In this document: one piece after another, positions 4,393 to 33,326 of the stretch | Layout of the letters: each line of letters starts with the position of its first letter | How positions within the stretch are numbered: position 1 is the stretch's first letter | IMG/VR virus record: IMGVR_UViG_2541047900_000007 | Length of the DNA stretch: 33,326 nt | Direction: 5' to 3' (one strand) | From: a virus | Taxonomy: Duplodnaviria > Heunggongvirae > Uroviricota > Caudoviricetes | Notes under the pieces: model-generated | Seen by the model: only the letters and a program-made list of their open reading frames with translations | Told to the model about the DNA's origin: nothing | Database searches by the model: none | Translations under genes and position numbers: made by a program

Positions 4393-5273
4393 ACACTCCT
4401 CGTCAGTATTCTGGCGGCCATTGCACTTAATCCCGGAGACATGCGGTTGAATGCTGTGCCGGCGGCGTTAAGCTGCCCGGAAACGGTATCCAGAGCACCT
4501 GCAATATTTCTTTTGTCCACACCACTCAGCGCAGACTGTGCCTGCTGTACATACGTGGCTGCTTCGCTGGCTGTTCTGGCCAGACTGATGGCATCGGGCA
4601 TGGATTCAGAGAGTGCGTTAAACGCCGGAACACTTTTCCCCAGAGCCCCGGAGATATTACCCAGTCCGCTCATCAGCCCCGGCACACGGGTCAGTGCGAC
4701 AACGGGGTTATCCTTCATTTTCTGTGTCACCCGAACGGCGCTGATAGTGGTCTGGAGTACAGACTGCGCCTGTTTCGCATAGTTGACGCCGTTGCGGATG
4801 AACTGCGCCACCCCTGAAGGTGAAGGAATGGCACCGGAGACCGCCCCGACACCCGGGAGCTTCGTGCGTATTGCCGGTGGTTGCAGAGGATTTTTCGGAT
4901 CACCGGTGTATTCCCGGAGAGACACGGTGGCACTGACAGCCAGCACGTTACCGGTGCTGTCTGTCTGCTCGCTGGTTGCGGTCACATCGGTAATCACGAA
5001 CCAGCCACGATAGTCACCGTTGCCGAAGACCAGCGCCAGTGCCTGATGGGCTTTCATGGCTGTTCGCAGTCTCGCCAGCTCCACATCGGGTACACAATAA
5101 TGCTGATGGAAAACCAGAGTTATCTGGATTTCGTCCAGCCTGTCGCCGACGAACTGCAGGCCAGGCTTACCCCCGATGCGGGCATGCTCCGCATAATCGA
5201 CGCCGAACGTGGCCTCGAAGCCGTCCCAGTAGGTAATCAGCTCAAACTCAATATCACCCAGTACGGCAAACAT
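4389..5273 (-). CDS. tail protein with gpU-like N-terminal domain (Mu N / DNA circulation protein family)
   Basis: 294-aa ORF immediately downstream of tape measure; N-terminal pattern IGGKPGLQFVGD...GWFVI resembles gpU/DNA-circulation N-domain. Confidence 0.5.
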   Translation of the reverse strand: MFAVLGDIEFELITYWDGFEATFGVDYAEHARIGGKPGLQFVGDRLDEIQITLVFHQHYCVPDVELARLRTAMKAHQALALVFGNGDYRGWFVITDVTATSEQTDSTGNVLAVSATVSLREYTGDPKNPLQPPAIRTKLPGVGAVSGAIPSPSGVAQFIRNGVNYAKQAQSVLQTTISAVRVTQKMKDNPVVALTRVPGLMSGLGNISGALGKSVPAFNALSESMPDAISLARTASEAATYVQQAQSALSGVDKRNIAGALDTVSGQLNAAGTAFNRMSPGLSAMAARILTRSV

Positions 5274-5899
5274 CAGCGGTACTCCTTACGTTGTTTCTGA
5301 GCCAGCAGACGCTCCAGCATTTTTTCCAGCTCATGCAGGCTCATATTCAGGGCGCCAGTCAGTCCGGCAGGCGCTGTGGTTTCCCTGCCATTGAGGAAAA
5401 ACTGAGGATTAAAGCTGACCTGGATACCACCAGACGTTCCACCGCCGGTTGCAGCTGCACCACGGCCTGAATATCCGGCAGCCAGGATTTCAGGCGAGGG
5501 GATACGGGGAACATCCGGTGTCATCTCATTTGCCAGACGTTGCCCTGGTAAAATCGATGCCCGGGTGGAGAGCGGAATAGCGGGCATGGAAGACAAACTA
5601 TTGATTACGGCTCCGATCGCATTTTTAGCAGACGACATAAACCCATTGATATCGGGCAACGGCATACTGAAGCGAACACCTGAAGTGTTATCCCGTATTT
5701 CTGGCCCCTGAATGCTCACGGGCATTTTGGGGAGCAGTTCACTGGCCATTCGCTGCCCGGCCAGAGCTGCAAGCGGAGTGGTCCGCTGCAGGCCAATGGC
5801 GGCCCCCTGCGCGATATTGTCACCAAAGCCCATAAACACGCGGCTCGGCGAATGAATGCCCAGCTTTTCGCTGAACCAGCCACTGATGCTGTCACCCAT
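5273..5899 (-). CDS. tape measure protein C-terminal fragment (frame stays open upstream to about 6148 but has no start codon before ATG 5899)
   Basis: Begins MGDSISGWF, the same peptide that ends each upstream tape-measure repeat unit; same frame as the ancestral tape measure after removing a 145-bp partial repeat. Confidence 0.5.
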   Translation of the reverse strand: MGDSISGWFSEKLGIHSPSRVFMGFGDNIAQGAAIGLQRTTPLAALAGQRMASELLPKMPVSIQGPEIRDNTSGVRFSMPLPDINGFMSSAKNAIGAVINSLSSMPAIPLSTRASILPGQRLANEMTPDVPRIPSPEILAAGYSGRGAAATGGGTSGGIQVSFNPQFFLNGRETTAPAGLTGALNMSLHELEKMLERLLAQKQRKEYR

Positions 5900-6555
5900 T
5901 CCGGTTACACTGGATTTGAGCGACTCCCATTTGTTTTTGATACCGTTAATCAGACCGTCGACAAGATGGCCACCGAAGTCGGTGAACTTTGCCGGCAGAT
6001 CAACACCAAGATATTTCAGCGCAGCTGCAAAGGCTTTATAGAGCAGACCTGCCGGCGACCAGTTAATCAGCAGCTTACCAGTTCCCGCGATACCGCCGTT
6101 AAAGGCTTCCTGAATGTCAGCCCAGCACTGTTTAAACCAGCTACTGATGGCCGAAATATTTCAGCGCAGCCGCAAAGGCTTTATAGAGCAGGCCTGCCGG
6201 CGACCAGTTAATCAGCAACTTACCAGTTCCCGCGATACCGCCGTTAAAGGCTTCCTGAATGTCAGCCCAGCACTGTTTAAACCAGCTACTGATGCTGTCA
6301 CCCATTCCGGTTACACTGGATTTGAGCGACCCCCATTTGTTTTTGATACCGTTAATCAGACCGTCGATAAGATGGCCACCGAAGTCGGTGAACTTTGCCG
6401 GCAGAGCAACGCCGAAATATTTCAGCGCAGCCGCAAAGGCTTTATAGAGCAGGCCTGCCGGCGACCAGTTAATCAGCAACTTACCAATTCCCACAATGCC
6501 GCCGTTAAAGGCTTCCTGAATGTCTGCCCAGCGCTGTTTAAACCAGCCACTGACT
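5873..6555. repeat. imperfect tandem repeat inside the tape measure gene: 261-bp units at 5889-6149 and 6295-6555 with a 145-bp partial unit at 6150-6294
   Basis: Direct alignment of plus-strand text; the same ~87-aa peptide (SWFKQ.WADIQEAFNGG...KYFG...GMGDSIS) recurs in the translation. Confidence 0.85.
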
Positions 6556-8369
6556 GCCCCCCAGTTGCGGTAGATAAGGTAAGCTGCTGCCGCGACAGCG
6601 GTGATAACGAGACCGATGGGATTCATCATCAGCGCACGTCCAATCCAGAGAACAGCACGTCCGGCGAGCATAATTCCGCGAACCAGCCCCCCGGAGAGCA
6701 CGCCACTCAGTGTTCTGGCTCCTTTGGCGACGGCGCTAAATCCGGTCACCAGCCAGCGGAGCTTACCGCCTTGCCCCAGTGCGAGCGACAGACGAAGCCA
6801 GTTGGCCCGAAGTAAAACAGCATTTTTCCAGACACTTACAAAGGGGGAAATAAGGAGATTCAGCCCCAGTTTGAGACCAACAGTCGCTATCTTAATCGCA
6901 AGGAGCGCACTGATGAGCTTAAAAGCCCCACTGACAAATTGCGGGTGAGTCGCTACCCAGTGTTTTGCCCCCTGAATGAGTGGAAGCAGTTCCTGAGTCA
7001 GAGAAATAAAAGATGGAGCTAATTGATCGCCCAGCGTAATTGCCAGATCACGACTGCTGACCATAAGTGCTTTAGTGGCTTCAAGGGGAGATTTCAGCCG
7101 CTGATCATAAGCACTGGCAAGCAAATCGTTATCCGCAGCCCTGAGAGCACCGGCACGGATCTCTCGATATCTGTCCATGTTGGCCAGCATCGGGCGGATA
7201 AATGCCATGACCTGCATATCCGCGAACATATCGCCCAGACCAAAGTTTTTCGCCAGAGCCTGAAGTGCCTCATCTCTTGCCGTATCATTCTTTATTTTCA
7301 TGGCTGATTTGAAGCCGGCCAGCGCTTCGGGGCTTTTGGCATTGAGGTAACGTTCTATAACACTCAACATCCCTTCAATCGGAGAGATCCCCGCAGCTTT
7401 ATAACTCGCAATAGATCCCTGCAAATCAATACCCAGATCAGCAAACTGTTTCTGAGTATCGCGGGCAAAAATTTTGGTAAGAAAGTTTTTAAAATTATTG
7501 GCTGCTTCGTCGGTGGAACCTGCACCGATTTTTGCTATCTGGAGACTGGCCCCGATTTCAGCAACAGCCTCTTTTCCACTGGCAATACCCGCCATCATTG
7601 GGGCCAGGGACTGCATCCACTTGACCTGATCCGGGATTTCAAATGACCCCTGGTCACCGGCATAAGCCATAATATTCTGAACGGCACCAAAATCTCTGGC
7701 CGCACCTTTCAGGGAGTTTTGCCAGACTGCGGCCACTTTTGCCCAGTCCTGAGCAGACGTGCGTGTTGCCGTTGCCGCGCGGGCAATATCCGGCATCAGA
7801 AAACCGATATCTGACACATTATCAATATTGTCGCTGATGAGTGAACCCACCGCCTCCTGCAGCTCATCCTGATACTGATTGTATTTAAGCGCCCAGCCTT
7901 TTATCTGTCCGGCAAGTGCATCCCGCGTTTTATTGTCATATTTTGCGGTGATCGACATATCAATCATTTTGTCCTGAAAAGACATGGACTGCTGAACGGC
8001 AGGGGAAACCGTATGATAAACAGTCTGTGCCATGCCATACGCTTCAATCCCCTGACCATACAGCGCCATGCGGTTAGCTTTCAGCGCATCACTGGTAGCG
8101 GATGCCGCTGACAGACGGCGCTGCTGGCGCTCAATTTGCTCCATGGTGCGGCTTACCCGCAGCAGCTCGCTGTTGAGATGCTGCATCCGGGAAGAACCCA
8201 GTTGACCATAACGTTCTGTTGCACGGGTTAAAGCGTTCTGACGTTCCTGCAGGCGGCGTGAGGTATCGCTCAGGGAATCAAGCGCACGGCGGGTACCGCT
8301 CATTGCAGAACGGAATGTGCTACCAATCATCCCGCCGATAACAACGCCGACTGAAAACTGTCCCGACAT
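6141..8369 (-). CDS. tail tape measure protein, N-terminal 742 aa (terminated by a frameshift at a repeat junction)
   Basis: Long ORF after the tail chaperone; GGAGGT ribosome-binding site before ATG 8369; coiled-coil and hydrophobic stretches typical of tape measure; ends HQ* exactly at the partial-repeat junction. Confidence 0.8.
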   Translation of the reverse strand: MSGQFSVGVVIGGMIGSTFRSAMSGTRRALDSLSDTSRRLQERQNALTRATERYGQLGSSRMQHLNSELLRVSRTMEQIERQQRRLSAASATSDALKANRMALYGQGIEAYGMAQTVYHTVSPAVQQSMSFQDKMIDMSITAKYDNKTRDALAGQIKGWALKYNQYQDELQEAVGSLISDNIDNVSDIGFLMPDIARAATATRTSAQDWAKVAAVWQNSLKGAARDFGAVQNIMAYAGDQGSFEIPDQVKWMQSLAPMMAGIASGKEAVAEIGASLQIAKIGAGSTDEAANNFKNFLTKIFARDTQKQFADLGIDLQGSIASYKAAGISPIEGMLSVIERYLNAKSPEALAGFKSAMKIKNDTARDEALQALAKNFGLGDMFADMQVMAFIRPMLANMDRYREIRAGALRAADNDLLASAYDQRLKSPLEATKALMVSSRDLAITLGDQLAPSFISLTQELLPLIQGAKHWVATHPQFVSGAFKLISALLAIKIATVGLKLGLNLLISPFVSVWKNAVLLRANWLRLSLALGQGGKLRWLVTGFSAVAKGARTLSGVLSGGLVRGIMLAGRAVLWIGRALMMNPIGLVITAVAAAAYLIYRNWGAVSGWFKQRWADIQEAFNGGIVGIGKLLINWSPAGLLYKAFAAALKYFGVALPAKFTDFGGHLIDGLINGIKNKWGSLKSSVTGMGDSISSWFKQCWADIQEAFNGGIAGTGKLLINWSPAGLLYKAFAAALKYFGHQ

Positions 8370-8444: not shown

Positions 8445-8862
8445 CTATGATTTGTCGCCGTACTCGCTTTTTATTTGCTCTTCAGCCTGCTCCAGCCACA
8501 TCTCCAGATCGTCAGTATCGAGGGCATCAATCTCCCCCGGCTGAAACCGGAACCATCTCGCCAGCAGCCCCTGCGCCTGCGTCAGCGCCCTGGTTGCTCT
8601 CACCCATCCCCGTGATGAGCTGAAATCGTTTCTGTAACTGCAGGTAATCAGCCAGATCCATATTGTCGAGATCTTCCGGGAGAAGACCAGTACTGCGGGC
8701 AATCAGCGGTTCGTCCCAGTCTGCCGGGTTTTTGCTGATTTTGCGCACCTGCTTCAGGTCTTTTACCGTCAGGCGTTTCAGTTCAACCAGCTCAATTCTG
8801 GTGCCTGCAGCAGTGGTGAAGGGATAAGACAATTTAAAAGTATCGGATGGGGTCTGTGACAT
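8445..8862 (-). CDS. predicted frameshift-extended chaperone (E+E'-like fusion; +1 or -2 shift near 8534-8540)
   Basis: Second ORF 8445-8702 overlaps the 3' end of the chaperone ORF in the +1 frame; G5 run CCGGGGGAG lies just before the chaperone stop; conserved chaperone/tape-measure frameshift arrangement. Confidence 0.4.
8527..8862 (-). CDS. tail assembly chaperone, P2 gpE-like
   Basis: 111-aa ORF between tube and tape measure genes; CAGGAG ribosome-binding site; gpE-like LTVKDLKQ...DLADYLQLQKRF pattern. Confidence 0.7.
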   Translation of the reverse strand: MSQTPSDTFKLSYPFTTAAGTRIELVELKRLTVKDLKQVRKISKNPADWDEPLIARSTGLLPEDLDNMDLADYLQLQKRFQLITGMGESNQGADAGAGAAGEMVPVSAGGD

Positions 8863-8913
8863 GATTGTGCTCCTGTGTAAGTTCAGGGCAGTATGTCGGG
8901 AGAAGCGCGTGAC

Positions 8914-8942
8914 GGATATTAAAGGAGATTAAGAAGAAGGGG
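8914..8942 (-). promoter_or_regulatory. candidate late promoter upstream of the tail chaperone/tape measure genes (class B motif)
   Basis: Plus strand GATATTAAAGGAGATTAAGAAG, near-identical to the site at 2419-2440; ATACTGCC element downstream on minus strand. Confidence 0.45.
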
Positions 8943-8952
8943 CCGGAGCCCC
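8939..8952 (-). terminator. weak hairpin downstream of the 93-aa ORF
   Basis: GGGGC-CGGA-GCCCC 8 nt after the stop at 8960, followed on minus strand by TTCTTCTTAATCTCC. Confidence 0.3.
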
Positions 8953-8959
8953 TGTGATG

Positions 8960-9241
8960 TCAGCAAGTGCGAAACCCCTTGCAGTTACGCAGGAAAGCGA
9001 TGAGAAGCGTCTTTCCCTCAGATTTGCCGATGCCGGAGAACCAGTGGTCGGGAGGCTCCCATGCTTCAATCAAATCCGCCAGTTTGCGGGCCTTTGAACG
9101 TGTGCAGTCAATCGGGTCATTGGTTTTACGGGTATTAAAAAGGGTTTCCACCCCCGGAATATCAAGGAGGGTAAACCACGTACCATTTGACATGCCCAGT
9201 GCCGCACATCGTCCTCCTTTATCCGTCAGTTCAACACTCAC
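8960..9241 (-). CDS. hypothetical protein between tube and chaperone genes
   Basis: 93-aa ORF starting 2 nt after the tube gene stop; followed by a hairpin at 8939-8952. Confidence 0.35.
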   Translation of the reverse strand: MSVELTDKGGRCAALGMSNGTWFTLLDIPGVETLFNTRKTNDPIDCTRSKARKLADLIEAWEPPDHWFSGIGKSEGKTLLIAFLRNCKGFRTC

Positions 9242-9243
9242 CG

Positions 9244-9765
9244 TCAGCCCCCGATATTGATACGGTAGTCAGTCAGTTGATCAACACCGCCGACCCGGAA
9301 GATGTTGGCCAGATAGTCCAGTTGCAGCAGCTCTTCACCATCCAGTACCTGTCTGATATACGTGCAGGTGAAGCTACTGGAGAACTCGGCGTTCTCGTGC
9401 TGTTTGAACGTCCCCAGCGGGTTCTTCTTGAACATAATCGTCAGGAAGGTGACCAGCGGGATTTCGTCAATCAGCCCCTGCGAGCTGTAGCGCTGGACGC
9501 TGGAACGACACTGCAGTGCCAGCGACCTGTACGGGTTCGCGGCAGACAGCATCGCATCGCGGTAAAAGCTGTTCCATTTGATTTCGCCTTCCAGTTTGTC
9601 AAAACCAGCCGGGAGTTCCACCTTACCCACCATCCCCAGCGCCTTGTGTTCCTGCATAATCATGGAGACATCGGGGAGTTTAACTTCCTCAGCCCGTCCC
9701 AGCAGGTTAGTACCATCCAGATAGATGTTGGCATTCGTGATGCGGTTTATCTCAATCTTTGACAT
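9244..9765 (-). CDS. tail tube protein (Mu M/gp40, P2 FII-like)
   Basis: 173-aa ORF immediately after the sheath gene. Confidence 0.8.
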   Translation of the reverse strand: MSKIEINRITNANIYLDGTNLLGRAEEVKLPDVSMIMQEHKALGMVGKVELPAGFDKLEGEIKWNSFYRDAMLSAANPYRSLALQCRSSVQRYSSQGLIDEIPLVTFLTIMFKKNPLGTFKQHENAEFSSSFTCTYIRQVLDGEELLQLDYLANIFRVGGVDQLTDYRINIGG

Positions 9766-11192
9766 CAGTTGCCCCCTTTCAGGGTTAACAGGTATTCCGA
9801 GGTGATCTCAGTCTCAAACGTCAGTCGCTCCAGCGGCGGTGGTGGCGTATATTTGTAGCTCAGCAACAGGTGCCCGGCGGCCAGCTCCGTCTCCGGATTG
9901 CGGGCCGGATCAAACCAGCAACGGAAGCCCAGTACCGCACCATCACCAGTCATTTTGCGACCGTAGGCGTTGACCGACTCCGTCAGTGCATCAATCAGCG
10001 CCTGAGTAATCGGCATGTCGATGTACTGCTGGCTGAAATAACGAATGGACTCGTTGATCACATCACCGGTGCGGCGAACGTTCTCAAAGTTACGCATATG
10101 GGTGACCGTTGGCCATGCTGCCGTCCGGTTACCCCACAGACGAAGGCCGCTGCCGTAACTGCTGAATACCGTGGTGATCCCCTGTTCGTTAAGCAGGTTC
10201 ACCTCACTCTGCGGGTCATCAATCATCGCGGACAGCTGGCGCTCCACGCCGGTGATCCCCAGAATCTCCTGATTGGAGGATGACCACCAGTAGCCCTTGT
10301 CCAGATCGACTCTGGCACGCAGACCTGCTGCACGCTGGCTGAGCGGCTCCAGACGCTCTGTGTTTGTCACCGGGTCATATACCTTCACATGCGGATAGCA
10401 CAGACGGACGCGGTCGGAGCTGGTATTGAAGTTGATGGTGCCTTCCGGGCCACGACCTGCCAGAGCCTGTGCAAAGGTGGTACCGACAGGCGCATCAATG
10501 TAGGTTACCGCGCCCAGCTTCTCTGCCATGGCGATAAGCTCAACTGCGACACTCTTCTGGGTGCAGAACACCGGCGCAATCAGAATTTTGGCGAAATAGC
10601 CGTACAGGTTGAAGCTGTCGTTAAGCAGCTTCATGCCAGTTCGGTTTCCGGCGCTATTCACCCCGCCGATGATGTCCGCCGCAGTCACCTTCGACGGGTC
10701 CGCGTACTCATAGCTCACCTTCACGCTGCCACCGGCCTCAATAGCCTTGCCCAGGTTCGTGAGCACACCCGCCTGCGCATCAACACGGTAGTCCGTGTTC
10801 GCCGTGTGGGTGGTGCTGCCTTCACTGTTTTTCACCACCACATTAGCGACAACCGGATGCGCCAGTCTGGCCTGCCCTGTCGATTTGTCAAAGGTAACCA
10901 CCTCATCCTCGATCGCCGTTTTATGTTTCGCCGGGTCGAGGACGTTAATGACCAGAACGGTACCTGCACCATGGTCATAAATCGCATCCAGCGCCTGCGG
11001 AATGGTAAAGCCGGTGAACTGGCTGCCAAATGCCGCTGCGTCTTTCTCAGACAGGCACTGTACCAGCGTATTGACATCCCCCATCGGGGCGGTACCAATC
11101 AGGCCAATAACGGCAGATTTCACCGTTTTAACCGGGCGGGCTCCGTTTTCCACCTCAATGGTTTCGGGACCATGCAGATAGTTAGCTGCCAT
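9765..11192 (-). CDS. contractile tail sheath protein (Mu L/gp39)
   Basis: 475-aa ORF with typical sheath N-terminus and position. Confidence 0.85.
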   Translation of the reverse strand: MAANYLHGPETIEVENGARPVKTVKSAVIGLIGTAPMGDVNTLVQCLSEKDAAAFGSQFTGFTIPQALDAIYDHGAGTVLVINVLDPAKHKTAIEDEVVTFDKSTGQARLAHPVVANVVVKNSEGSTTHTANTDYRVDAQAGVLTNLGKAIEAGGSVKVSYEYADPSKVTAADIIGGVNSAGNRTGMKLLNDSFNLYGYFAKILIAPVFCTQKSVAVELIAMAEKLGAVTYIDAPVGTTFAQALAGRGPEGTINFNTSSDRVRLCYPHVKVYDPVTNTERLEPLSQRAAGLRARVDLDKGYWWSSSNQEILGITGVERQLSAMIDDPQSEVNLLNEQGITTVFSSYGSGLRLWGNRTAAWPTVTHMRNFENVRRTGDVINESIRYFSQQYIDMPITQALIDALTESVNAYGRKMTGDGAVLGFRCWFDPARNPETELAAGHLLLSYKYTPPPPLERLTFETEITSEYLLTLKGGN

Positions 11193-11436
11193 GGGTGTCC
11201 TCCGTTTTCACTTCGCTGTCACTGCTGCTTCTGCGCTTTGGTGACTGCACAGCCGGTGTGCCGGCGGGTTTAGTCTCTTCAGGTACCGGCGTCAGATGTT
11301 TCAGCGCCACCAGTACCTTCACGTAGTCATGCTCCTCCGGCAGGGAAACCGTCTTCCCCGGCCAGAGCAGGATTTCGGTTCCGTCCGACAGCGTGACGCC
11401 GCTGGCCGGGCCGGAATAGCGGTATTCTTTCATCAC
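11182..11436 (-). CDS. hypothetical protein (Mu gp38 position)
   Basis: 84-aa ORF overlapping the sheath gene start by 11 nt. Confidence 0.45.
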   Translation of the reverse strand: MMKEYRYSGPASGVTLSDGTEILLWPGKTVSLPEEHDYVKVLVALKHLTPVPEETKPAGTPAVQSPKRRSSSDSEVKTEDTHGS

Positions 11437-14776: not shown

Positions 14777-14800
14777 TTTGCTGTCCCGCGTTATGTTGTC

Positions 14801-14862
14801 GGAGACAGTTTGTGAGAAATGCAGGCCCGGCGATTTTAATCTGCTTTAGAAAACATCAGGGG
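14801..14862 (-). promoter_or_regulatory. candidate late promoter upstream of the I-like head gene (class A motif)
   Basis: Minus strand reads TTAAAATC-N7-CCTGCATTTCTCA-N3-CTGTCTCC in the 210-bp G/I intergenic region. Confidence 0.5.
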
Positions 14863-14911: not shown

Positions 14912-14925
14912 AGGCTGTAAAGCCT
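14912..14925 (-). terminator. weak hairpin plus U-tract downstream of the G-like gene
   Basis: Minus strand AGGCT-TTAC-AGCCT followed by CTGTTTTATAA; 5-bp stem only. Confidence 0.3.
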
Positions 14926-21897: not shown

Positions 21898-22248
21898 TTA
21901 AAGCCCCATCGCAACAGCCAGGCAGACCGCTGCAACAATCAGTGCACGGCGGATTAACGCAGCAGAAAACACCAGGTGAAGGCCGGTCTGTACCGGGAAA
22001 CGCCCTTCAGCCATCAGCCTGTCGTCATGTTTCAGGTACTGACCGGGACGGGCTTTGGGGAAGAGCGAACGGTCAAGCCAGTAACCCAGCACTGCTGCCA
22101 GCGTGATGAGTGCCAGCTTGTAGATCACAACAGGCAGCTGCTGTGGTGAGACCAGAGCGATGGCGCCCAGCAACAGCACTGAGGTCAGCAGCCAGCCGCT
22201 GAGGCGAGGTTTTTTAACAGGGGGAATGAATTTTTTCAGGTTTTTCAT
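21898..22248 (-). CDS. holin-like membrane protein
   Basis: Start moved to ATG 22248 (MKNLKKF...) preceded by AGGAGA; three hydrophobic segments; first gene of lysis cassette. Confidence 0.5.
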   Translation of the reverse strand: MKNLKKFIPPVKKPRLSGWLLTSVLLLGAIALVSPQQLPVVIYKLALITLAAVLGYWLDRSLFPKARPGQYLKHDDRLMAEGRFPVQTGLHLVFSAALIRRALIVAAVCLAVAMGL

Positions 22249-22267
22249 GTGTGTCTCCTTATCTGGT

Positions 22268-22327
22268 GGAGACAGCATCACAAATACAGGGCGCGAAGGA
22301 TTTTAAAGCGCGTTAAGAGAGCCGGGG
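22268..22327 (-). promoter_or_regulatory. candidate late promoter upstream of the lysis operon (class A motif)
   Basis: Minus strand reads TTAAAATC-N7-CCTGTATTTGTGA-N3-CTGTCTCC; same architecture and spacing as the site upstream of the I-like gene. Confidence 0.5.
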
Positions 22328-22378: not shown

Positions 22379-22855
22379 ATGACGCACACACTGAATCCGG
22401 TCATCACTGTCACTGTGTCCGGTCCTGTGGGCAGCGGTAAAAGTTACGTACTGGCGCGGATAGAAGAGATGGTGAAACAGGAACTCGGAAACAGCGTCAT
22501 TGTCGATGCTGCTGACGTGGAGAATGAGCGCCGTATGAATGGCGAAGATCTGACGACCTGGCAGAAGCCACGGGGTGGCACAGTGATCAGGCTGGAGGAA
22601 TACACGGGACAGGGCCTGTTGTCATACGGCGAGGAGCGTATCTGTCGGACGAATGAGCTGCTGGATGTTATATGCCCCACGGGCCGGCAACCCTGGATAC
22701 TGCCCGATGCACTGCATGCCACCATTGCGGCACTGATGACAGTTTACGATCAGGAGCTGCTCATGAAGGAGTTACGTAAACTCACCGGTCAGCCAACAGA
22801 ATGTTGTTCGTCTCCGAAGTACGGCAAACAGGAAAACGCCCCGGATAATCCTTAA
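22379..22855 (+). CDS. small P-loop NTPase-like protein (Walker A GPVGSGKS), function unknown
   Basis: 158-aa ORF with GAGGAG ribosome-binding site; divergent from the lysis operon and convergent with the repressor-linked cassette. Confidence 0.55.
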   Translation: MTHTLNPVITVTVSGPVGSGKSYVLARIEEMVKQELGNSVIVDAADVENERRMNGEDLTTWQKPRGGTVIRLEEYTGQGLLSYGEERICRTNELLDVICPTGRQPWILPDALHATIAALMTVYDQELLMKELRKLTGQPTECCSSPKYGKQENAPDNP

Positions 22856-32515: not shown

Positions 32516-32965
32516 ATGCAGAAAAAACGCCTGATACAGCTTATCCATATTGCCCGTAATGAACTGGGTATGGATGAAGACACCTACCGCCAGATGTTAC
32601 AGGGGCTGACCGGTAAAGCCTCAACCAAAGGAATGGATACCACACAACTAAACTGCGTGCTGGAATCCATGAAAAAGAAAGGCTTTCGCGTTAAACCAGC
32701 CAGAAAAGCCAGCTCCGGTTTACCGCTGGATAACCATCCGCAGTCCAGGAAAATTCGTGCGCTATGGCTTGAAATGGCTGCTGCCGGCATTGTTCGTGAC
32801 CGTTCAGAAAATGCATTAGCGAGGTGGATCAAGCGGGAAACGGGCATCAGCGCCCTGCGCTGGCTCAGTACTGAACAGGCAAGCAGTGTTATTGAGAAAC
32901 TGAAGAAGTGGCAGCGCAGAGCTGCGGGAGTCAAACATGAGCGACCTGAATCAGTTTCGAAGTAA
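32516..32965 (+). CDS. gemA: GemA-like protein (Mu gp16 family)
   Basis: 149-aa ORF immediately upstream of the Mor-like gene, as in Mu. Confidence 0.65.
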   Translation: MQKKRLIQLIHIARNELGMDEDTYRQMLQGLTGKASTKGMDTTQLNCVLESMKKKGFRVKPARKASSGLPLDNHPQSRKIRALWLEMAAAGIVRDRSENALARWIKRETGISALRWLSTEQASSVIEKLKKWQRRAAGVKHERPESVSK

Positions 32966-33326
32966 GGGGCCGGAACTCCTGGTGGAACTGGCACAGCATA
33001 CCTCTGAGACCGTTCGCGAGATTATTGATATTGAGCCCGAAGTTGCCGACCAGATTGGTCAGGCCGTCGCGAACCGAATGATGCAGGTCTGGGGCGGGCA
33101 AAACGTTTATTTCCCGATGGGCATGGTATGGAAGGTCAGTCAGCGCGACCGGGAAATCTTCAGGGAGTTTAACGGACGCAACCACCACGAACTGGCCCGC
33201 AAATTTGGTGTTTCGCTTCAGTGGGTCTACAGCGTGGTTAAGCGGGTAAGAAAAGAAGAACTGGATCGGATGCAGGGCAAGCTATTTGCTGATGAACCCG
33301 ATGCAGATACGGAGAAAAAAGAGTAA
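32937..33326 (+). CDS. mor: Mor-like middle-operon transcription activator (Mor/C family)
   Basis: 129-aa ORF with WGGQNVYFP and FNGRNHHELARKFGVSLQWVY motifs characteristic of the Mor/C family; stop is the last codon of the window. Confidence 0.7.
   Translation: MSDLNQFRSKGPELLVELAQHTSETVREIIDIEPEVADQIGQAVANRMMQVWGGQNVYFPMGMVWKVSQRDREIFREFNGRNHHELARKFGVSLQWVYSVVKRVRKEELDRMQGKLFADEPDADTEKKE

Follow-up and report, generated by a model that had tools for sequence, protein, structure and literature searches.

The two minus-strand sites described here are, in our analysis, two of four late promoters of a BcepMu-type prophage, and the explanation that best accounts for the data, to which we give a probability of about 0.7, is that these are Mor-dependent late promoters with a translational lock. 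The sites were found in a stretch of 33,326 nucleotides, which we refer to as the window. An original prediction, made from the letters of the sequence, had recognized two sites, upstream of the lysis cassette and of the gene equivalent to I of phage Mu, and had likened them to the activator-dependent late promoters of Mu.

In the proposed mechanism, each site would be a sigma-70 promoter with a usable -10 hexamer (nAnACT), no -35 element and an 18-bp dyad centred at about -42.5. A multimer of a single Mor/C-family protein would bind this dyad and recruit RNA polymerase, in the manner of Mor at Mu Pm and of C at the late promoters of Mu, giving a two-tier cascade that would run from the early operon to Mor and from Mor to four late operons, with no separate C gene. 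In read-through RNA, the segment from -14 to -1 would pair with the SD/AUG region of the first gene of the operon (holin, I-like and tail genes) and hide the ribosome site, while RNA started at the Mor-dependent +1 would come without this 5' arm and would be translatable. For gpW, a leaderless AUG would lie at +1, and read-through RNA would carry a GC hairpin ahead of the AUG and no SD. Read-through might come, for example, from the repressor-side operon aimed at the holin gene, and the resulting RNA would be locked.

Probable late promoter sites and their parts

The window, of 33.3 kb, shares 99.99% identity with a prophage of Escherichia coli O2:K2:H1 strain C 237-04, 99% with Escherichia phage PhiKM, a member of Bcepmuvirus by classification, and about 85% with Klebsiella phage KP12, and its genes stand in the same order as in Burkholderia phage BcepMu. 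Judged by its sequence, it is a Bcepmuvirus, a Mu-like (BcepMu-type) transposable prophage of E. coli. Prophages of this type were found in 642 of 5,426 complete E. coli genomes, and in other enterobacteria relatives of the prophage bear virulence cargo. The early operon runs on the plus strand from about 25.2 kb to Mor at 32937-33326 and contains HTH genes, an rve-type transposase, an ExeA-family ATPase, Gam, GemA and Mor. The minus strand carries the late genes, which run from the holin gene (ATG 22248) to the tail genes, and also an operon with an HTH repressor-like gene, which extends from 25009 to 22893 and is oriented toward the holin gene.

The observation of a repeated motif at two sites was confirmed in part. 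Its outer boxes were recovered with zero mismatches and a common spacing, TTAAAATC-N23-CTGTCTCC, at 14801-14839 and 22268-22306 on the minus strand, and these are the only exact copies in the window. Both lie, as had been noted, in intergenic gaps, immediately upstream of the holin gene and of the 371-aa head gene equivalent to I (ATG 14776). When up to three mismatches were allowed, three sites were found, a count attained by none of 100 dinucleotide shuffles; the third site, with three mismatches, is at 2388-2426 on the minus strand. The motif had also been given an inner block, CCTGYATTTSTSA, flanked by 7 nt and 3 nt with identical spacing in both sites. The block is indeed present in both, but its flanks measure 6 nt and 4 nt at 14813-14825 and 8 nt and 2 nt at 22278-22290, so that it is shifted by 2 nt. 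We rejected it as a motif: its register differs between the sites, the window shows no enrichment for it (7 matches at up to two mismatches vs 4.7 expected), and in relatives it falls in the least conserved part of the region, with almost no information content.

The motif is better divided in another way. As we read the sequence, TTAAAATC is the right, promoter-proximal half of an 18-bp activator dyad together with its flank, CTGTCTCC is the segment from -8 to -1 of the core promoter, made up of the last two bases of the -10 hexamer and the discriminator, and the middle block is a non-conserved spacer. The number of sites also has to be revised from two to four, the further ones being at about 8884-8934 and about 2388-2438 on the minus strand.

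The four sites precede the holin gene (22248), the I-equivalent head gene (14776), the tail-assembly/tape-measure genes (8862) and the gene for the baseplate protein gpW (2387), and they have a common architecture, in which the dyad yTAA-N6-TTAA is followed by 23 variable nt, the -10 hexamer nAnACT and a C-rich discriminator. A composite pattern of these elements (TAA-N6-TTAA-N-A, 21 nt, nAnnnT) matched five times in the window, as compared to 0.014 matches expected per window, and four or more matches were obtained in none of 500 simulations. Four of the matches are on the minus strand (22315, 14848, 8931 and 2435), all in gaps before operon-first genes, and the fifth is the palindromic dyad of the holin site read on the plus strand. 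With this pattern, no dyad sites were found outside the four late promoters anywhere in the window, the early control region included. At all four sites the centre of the dyad is at -42.5 from the predicted +1, all +1 positions being predictions from the -10 register. The -35 windows (AATCCT, AATCGC, TATCCG and TATCAG) are poor matches to TTGACA, and a sigma-70 consensus scan of the minus strand at three of the four sites returned no full -35/-10 promoter.

The predicted parts of each promoter are as follows, all on the minus strand. At the holin promoter, P_hol, the activator dyad TCTTAAcgcgctTTAAAA occupies 22301-22318, with its core TTAA-N6-TTAA at 22303-22316 and its centre at -42.5, and is present in 43 of 43 distinct relatives; TTAAAATC, at 22299-22306, covers its right half plus flank. 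The -10 hexamer GATGCT (22274-22279) is preceded by TGt and has no -35 partner, the discriminator GTCTCC (22268-22273) leads to a predicted +1 at A22267, and hardly any variation is seen at A(-11), C(-8), T(-7) and G(-6). The dyad of P_I, TTCTAAagcagaTTAAAA, is at 14834-14851 (core CTAA-N6-TTAA, 14836-14849), and its geometry is kept in all 39 distinct relatives. Its -10 hexamer, CAAACT (14807-14812), is the same as the one that the annotated Mu PI feature has in its -10 register in our own alignment, and it is followed by the discriminator GTCTCC (14801-14806) and a predicted +1 at G14800. Between the G-like gene and P_I there is a terminator-like hairpin, AGGCTTTACAGCCT, and then a T-run (14912-14925). 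The dyad of P_tail, TCTTAAtctcctTTAATA (8917-8934), was found in 39 of 40 distinct relatives and adjoins the T-tract of an intrinsic terminator (8938-8953), which runs into the dyad; the -10 hexamer CATACT is at 8890-8895, the discriminator is GCCCTG and the predicted +1 is A8883. For P_W, 45 of 48 distinct relatives fit the dyad TCTTAAacgcctTTAATA (2421-2438), the other three having a spacer that is 1 nt longer, and the -10 hexamer is AATACT (2394-2399).

Conservation and the candidate activator

For comparison with relatives, the regions upstream of the holin, I-like, tail-assembly and gpW genes were aligned from 160 related loci from viral contigs, with portal identity of 71-100% and baseplate-J identity of 69-100%. 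Conservation across related phages, which the original prediction had proposed as a check, was borne out for the promoter geometry: when sequences were anchored on the dyad, A and T were present at the expected positions -11 and -7 in 166 of 170 distinct promoter sequences. The conserved elements are the dyad, with the consensus TTnyTAA-N6-TTAAnAnC, the hexamer nAnACT followed by G, and a 6-nt C-rich stretch; the 21 nt from the dyad flank to the hexamer are constant in length and variable in sequence. Several bases are near-invariant although they lie outside the selection filter, namely T at -52/-51, A at -34, C at -32, A at -9, C at -8 and G at -6. In all four promoter families, A at -34, downstream of the dyad, is found in 100% and C at -32 in 72-95% of sequences. 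This conservation parallels what is reported for Mu, in which the bases just downstream of the dyad are required for function (PMC2582627).

The same dyad is found in the same four gaps of Burkholderia phage BcepMu (CTAAagccgaTTAA, GTAAagccgaTTAA, TTAAtctgcgCTGA and TTAGccggctTTAA), at the same distance of 29 nt to T(-7), with the -10 hexamers CAAGAT, GATGAT, GACAAT and CAACAT. Gene I of BcepMu probably also starts at +2, at the third ATG, which aligns with the N-terminus of the window protein. At P_W, the gpW ATG (2387) directly follows the 6-nt discriminator, so that its A coincides with the predicted +1. A distance of 7 nt from T(-7) to this ATG is shared by the window, BcepMu and 41 of 45 distinct relatives. 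Upstream of this ATG there is no SD (the sequence there is GCCCCC) and no other in-frame start. The position of the ATG at the predicted +1 therefore implies that the gpW mRNA is leaderless, a prediction from the sequence, and it also gives independent support for the promoter register.

The candidate activator is the product of the Mor/C-family gene at 32937-33326 on the plus strand (Pfam Mor, E=1.3e-43), the last gene of both the early operon and the prophage. The protein is equally similar to Mu C and Mu Mor, with PDB matches to 9l0x (Mu C, E=3.5e-9) and 1rr7 (Mu Mor, E=3.8e-9). A C-like activator had been expected just past Mor. What follows Mor in the 100%-identical E. coli chromosome is approximately 160 bp, a truncated host gene and gadC, and a tblastn search of 49.5 kb of prophage and flanks at E<=10, with this Mor and Mu C as queries, matched the Mor gene only. 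Similarly, BcepMu has a single Mor/C gene, gp01, at the extreme end of its genome. A C gene beyond Mor is ruled out by these three observations (Mor as the last phage gene, the sole tblastn match and the single BcepMu homologue), and the arrangement of Mu, with a second family member downstream of Mor, is not the one found here. As the only Mor/C homologue, encoded by the last gene of the phage, Mor is the likely activator of the four late promoters. We think it likely that Mor, bound to the dyad, activates sigma-70 RNA polymerase at the four promoters, with starts at 22267, 14800, 8883 and 2387. The literature searched contained no transcription start site, Mor-binding or translation measurements for this phage group.

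The interpretation given to the two sites by the original prediction is thus supported in part. The parallel with Mu Plys and PI stands, with the same dyad type, the same distance to the -10, no -35 and a Mor/C-family gene in the phage, and the sites are very probably activator-dependent late promoters analogous to these two. The C gene, the parsing of the motif and the number of sites do not stand, nor does the label "Class A", as no such class name exists.

Predicted hairpins at the translation starts and competing explanations

A hairpin is predicted at each of the four promoters in RNA that reads through from upstream, again on the minus strand. At P_hol (22244-22284), the 5' arm at 22268-22284 corresponds to -17 to -1, and the 3' arm at 22244-22258 covers the holin SD GGAG (22255-22258) and AUG (22246-22248). 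At P_I (14781-14808), CTGTC.CCG pairs with CGGGACAG, and the 3' arm (14781-14789) is the weak SD region, 5 nt before ATG 14776. At P_tail (8858-8897), pairing of 8884-8897 with 8858-8875 covers the SD AGGAG (8870-8874) and the ATG (8860-8862) of the tail-assembly gene (8527-8862). The P_W hairpin, GGGGGCA-atac-TGCCCCC (2385-2408), encloses the -10 hexamer and extends as far as the start codon of gpW. With the predicted +1 as reference, the 5' arm ends at -1 for holin and tail, at about +3 for I and before the AUG for gpW.

Predicted read-through folds had energies of -14.2 (holin), -10.7 (I), -12.1 (tail) and -15.8 kcal/mol (gpW), with the SD and/or AUG paired in each, and z-scores of -3.3, -2.3, -3.3 and -3.4, respectively (0 of 200 shuffles for holin and tail). 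For RNA beginning at the predicted +1, the corresponding values were -0.5 (holin), -5.9 (I) and -1.4 kcal/mol (tail); as modelled, such RNA is essentially unstructured for holin and tail and weakly structured for I. A hairpin that hides the SD and/or AUG in longer transcripts, as in regulation of the T4 gene e type, is therefore present here in silico only. Searching the whole window against Rfam 15 at the gathering score gave 0 matches.

The strongest single test, based on modelled structure, is the ranking of gene starts. When a 48-nt window was folded at each of the 48 annotated gene starts of the prophage, the four promoter-proximal starts took ranks 1-4, with z-scores of -4.2, -4.0, -3.6 and -2.6, the next best being -1.6; the chance of this ranking is 1/194,580. 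The same screen gave a partial replication in BcepMu, where these starts ranked 2, 4, 7 and 8 of 47. In Mu, the first genes after PI, Pm and Plys took ranks 1-3 of 28, and mom was fourth.

Pairing of the segment from -14 to -1 with the leader was also examined in the relatives, where the duplexes had mean energies of -13.8, -11.8 and -10.7 kcal/mol, as compared to -7.4, -7.0 and -5.4 kcal/mol with shuffled arms, and were 5-6 kcal/mol stabler than shuffled arms or a spacer control. Complementarity is kept across lineages whose arms are wholly different (TATTCCCT/AGGGAATA, CTGTCCTCAG/CTGAGGACAG and GATACT/AGTATC), and the loop ranges in length from 9 to 14 nt. About 90% of the cells in the stem alignments were paired, vs 33-55% in slid controls, with few double compensatory changes. 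For the I stem, 90.7% of cells were paired (45-55% when slid), three pairs showed double changes, and the covariation score was 0.253 vs 0.217, a value attained by 11 of 500 shuffles; the holin stem had no double compensatory change. Substitutions in the stems were mostly C-to-U transitions that preserve a G-U pair. On its own, covariation in these alignments lends the stems weak support. Complementarity of the type CTCC/GGAG could partly reflect independent constraints on the discriminator and the SD.

Overall, we regard it as about an even question whether the modelled hairpins and the leaderless gpW make translation of the first gene depend on its own promoter. A wider rule, to which we would give slightly less than even odds, is that Mor/C-dependent promoters are built into RNA structure or placed with a leaderless AUG at +1, so that only activator-initiated transcripts would be translatable; it would apply to all four Bcepmuvirus operons and apparently to Mu Pm, Plys and PI. 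Two further observations concern the setting of the repeats. At P_W and three BcepMu promoters, the inverted repeat brackets the -10 instead of pairing with the SD, and terminators are already present upstream of P_I and P_tail, where there would be less need for a lock.

The bracketing of the -10 at these four promoters, which hiding an SD would not need, and the weak covariation statistics both favour a reading in which the promoters are as described but the repeats act on DNA, by melting or extrusion, or serve as RNA-processing or stability elements of the upstream 3' end. We think this rather unlikely. The substitutions that dominate the stems are compatible with G-T/G-U pairs and fit RNA over DNA, for holin, I and tail the SD and/or AUG falls within the 3' arm in lineages whose arm sequences are wholly different, the loop is not of fixed length, and the upstream 3' ends have separate terminators. 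It is less probable still that the real -10 is TAAAAT within TTAAAATC, with a start about 7 nt downstream (near 22292 and 14825), in which case every late transcript would contain the CTGTCTCC/SD hairpin, which would either throttle translation or need a Com-like opener. The window has good -10 matches in TAAAAT and TAATAT, the hairpins are stable, and the Mu mom leader, opened by Com and fourth in the structure ranking, offers a precedent. However, at the would-be -7, 87% of distinct I-promoter relatives have G (TAAAAG, TAACAG) and some tail promoters have C (TAATAC), the dyad to which the box belongs has an equally conserved left half 6 bp away, and a second hexamer with invariant A(-11) and T(-7) stands at a fixed distance of 23 nt downstream in 166 of 170 sequences. 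In addition, gpW would receive a 30-nt leader without an SD, and no Com-like gene is annotated in the 100%-identical chromosome. TTAAAATC was rejected as a -10 hexamer on two of these grounds, namely a G or C at -7 in most relatives and its place as half of the dyad.

Binding of the dyad by some other regulator, such as the phage repressor, IHF or another early protein, is in our view very unlikely. The TTAA half-site does differ from the TTAT/ATAA of Mu, and binding by Mor is itself a prediction, but the pattern occurs at the four late sites only and not in the early control region, and its spacing and position copy those of Mu C and Mor sites (PMC4287176). Moreover, Mor/C is the only family encoded in the genome that is known to act from about -43 at promoters without a -35. 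An IHF site or a repressor operator was rejected, the dyad showing by inspection no fit to the IHF consensus WATCAANNNNTTR and having no copy in the early control region. That the likeness of the two sites arose by chance is scarcely credible. Single 8-mers are not rare in the window (CTGTCTCC alone has 2 copies vs 0.84 expected, a count attained in 21 of 100 shuffles), but the joint pattern never attains the observed count in shuffles, and four sites of one architecture are kept as far as Burkholderia BcepMu. The data on conservation thus speak against a TAAAAT hexamer, another regulator and chance alike, and all three are disfavoured.

Relation to Mu and other known systems

Mu Pm and the four Mu late promoters have a -10 without a -35 and an imperfect dyad of about 16 bp at -43.5, which is bound by Mor or C (PMC4287176, PMC2582627, PMC4461284), and in the structures of Mor and C the tetramers touch sigma region 4, the alpha C-terminal domain and the beta flap (bioRxiv 10.1101/2025.05.02.651988). 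When we aligned the annotated Mu late promoters, they consisted of TTAT-N6-ATAA, 24 nt and a -10 of TAGACT, CAAACT, TATCCT or TAAGAT, with the dyad centre at -43.5. The prophage sites likewise have a -10 without a usable -35 and a Mor/C-family activator encoded by the same phage, and their dyad is at -42.5 vs -43.5 in Mu, an offset of 1 bp that lies within the error of the predicted start site. Because the dyad, the spacing, the -10 and the lack of a -35 match the Mu late promoters, the four sites have the architecture of Mor/C-dependent promoters, their dependence on the activator being predicted. By these sequence features, they are new members of the Mor/C-dependent class in a genus with none described in the literature searched, in which we also found no account of Mor sites of other Mu-like phages or of a Mu read-through hairpin.

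In both phages, a 4-bp/N6/4-bp dyad near -43 is followed after approximately 23-24 nt by a -10 of the nAnACT/TAGACT type, there is no -35, and four promoters head the lysis, head and tail operons of a phage with a Mor/C-family activator. In contrast to the TTAT/ATAA half-sites of Mu, those of the prophage are yTAA/TTAA; the dyad is 1 bp nearer to the -10, and the bases after it are A-rich (AAnC) where Mu has CCCC. The prophage has no mom and has separate promoters for the tail-chaperone/tape-measure and the gpW baseplate operons, and its activator is the only Mor/C protein of the phage. Mu Pm, whose dyad is at -43.5 (PMC4287176), resembles the prophage in having the activator gene at the end of the early operon and a -10 without a -35; for the -10/+1 register of Pm we used this published value, as the register is not assignable from the sequence alone. 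Transcription start sites have been mapped for Mu Pm, Plys and PI (PMID 2522923). At Pm, an upstream terminator also abuts or overlaps the activator site, as the T-tract enters the dyad at P_tail (PMC4287176). Mu Mor drives only C, whereas the prophage has no middle operon and no C, and its Mor homologue would drive the late operons directly. The prophage is a variant in three respects: its proposed two-tier cascade has one activator only, its half-site is TTAA, and hairpins are predicted within its promoters, together with a leaderless gpW.

These results give a regulatory map with one activator, four promoters, predicted start sites and one predicted leaderless gene. They also provide a predicted 18-bp operator for a Mor/C protein of non-Mu specificity, which is useful now that structures of the Mor and C activation complexes exist. 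If the lock is real and common to Mu, it would explain why holin and structural genes stay silent despite transcription from upstream. If the wider rule is true, it would be an undescribed form of insulation, with which transposable prophages that insert at random could tolerate read-through coming from host genes or from the repressor operon.

Among known systems, the Mu mom leader resembles the prophage in that an RNA hairpin covers the place where translation of a late gene starts, and it was found by the same structure screen (fourth of 28). In contrast, its hairpin is in the native transcript and is opened by Com, a protein with no annotated homologue in the 100%-identical chromosome. In the case of T4 genes e, soc, 49 and I-TevI, longer transcripts hide the SD/AUG, and a late promoter lies within the DNA of the 5' arm, so that late transcripts come without the arm (PMC3014915). 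As predicted here, upstream transcripts of gene e that contain both arms sequester the SD/AUG, and a lysis gene is guarded from premature expression (PMC3014915). The two differ in that the prophage would use a sigma-70 promoter with a class-II-type activator, as opposed to the gp55 late promoters of T4, and in that the feature is found at all late operons of a temperate transposable phage, with one operon leaderless. If the lock is real, the gene e mechanism would extend to temperate phages. Fold-back inhibition in IS10 and IS50 follows a similar logic. The ribosome site of externally initiated transposase transcripts is paired with sequence upstream of it, and the promoter of the element itself starts within the structure; in this way, a randomly inserting element guards a dangerous gene from outside transcription. 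The structures of IS10 and IS50 are at the ends of the elements and guard the transposase, whereas those of the prophage are internal and would guard the late operons.

Structured gene starts in Mu and BcepMu

When translation starts were compared by a folding z-score in phage Mu (28 middle and late genes sampled; L162, Mu 8800-11200, and L165, Mu 16500-36717), the three most structured start windows were those of gp18, lys and I. These are the first genes after Pm, the Mor-dependent middle promoter, and the late promoters Plys and PI, respectively, and the 5' arm of each structure overlapped the -10/discriminator of the corresponding promoter. The mom hairpin, known to be Com-dependent, ranked fourth in the same sample.

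In Burkholderia phage BcepMu (L164), the highest structure score among all gene starts in a 40-nt window test was that of gp20. At ~11230-11266, a 10-bp hairpin (GGATGACTCC/GGAGTCATCC) covers the SD of this gene, which adjoins the BcepMu holin promoter on its upstream side. The annotated start of gp32, the equivalent of Mu I (L164 18850-18864), falls within the predicted -10 hexamer GATGAT. This start is probably misannotated: in alignment, the N-terminus of the window protein corresponds to the third ATG of gp32 (18862), which lies at ~+2, so that gp32 may be a leaderless gene.

The gene divergent from P_hol

A 158-aa gene on the plus strand (22379-22855) points away from P_hol, the predicted holin promoter. 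Its product has a weak P-loop/AAA_30 match and is labeled elsewhere as an 'ABC transporter ATPase'. The gene is limited to a subgroup of relatives, and a terminator hairpin occupies the same place in the others. The holin-site dyad is palindromic, and its plus-strand reading also satisfied the fixed-distance rule, that is, the constant spacing from dyad to -10 hexamer (here CAGGAT). It is thus conceivable from the motif that this dyad serves as a bidirectional Mor site.

State and surroundings of the prophage

At window position 6149/6150, 116 nt are missing relative to the otherwise identical E. coli chromosome (L001 12535-12650). The gap lies in a repetitive stretch of the tape-measure gene and splits this 1070-aa minus-strand gene into ORFs 6141-8369 and 5273-5899. 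The prophage copy in the window is thus either defective or misassembled at the repeat. Some genomes carry two to three prophage copies. Outside the window (L001 1-2670 and 39830-42130), smrA/dgcM border the prophage at one end, whereas a truncated glycoside-hydrolase-10 gene and gadC/gadB lie at the other. These two sides are not known to be adjacent in E. coli K-12, which would point to a rearrangement or deletion linked to this transposable prophage.

The terminator abutting P_tail

The intrinsic terminator of the head/tail-tube operon (8938-8953, minus strand) directly abuts the dyad of P_tail, the predicted tail-operon promoter (8917-8934, minus strand), such that the T-tract of the terminator forms the left flank of the dyad. 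This contact resembles the arrangement in Mu, where the early terminator lies within the annotated Pm region.
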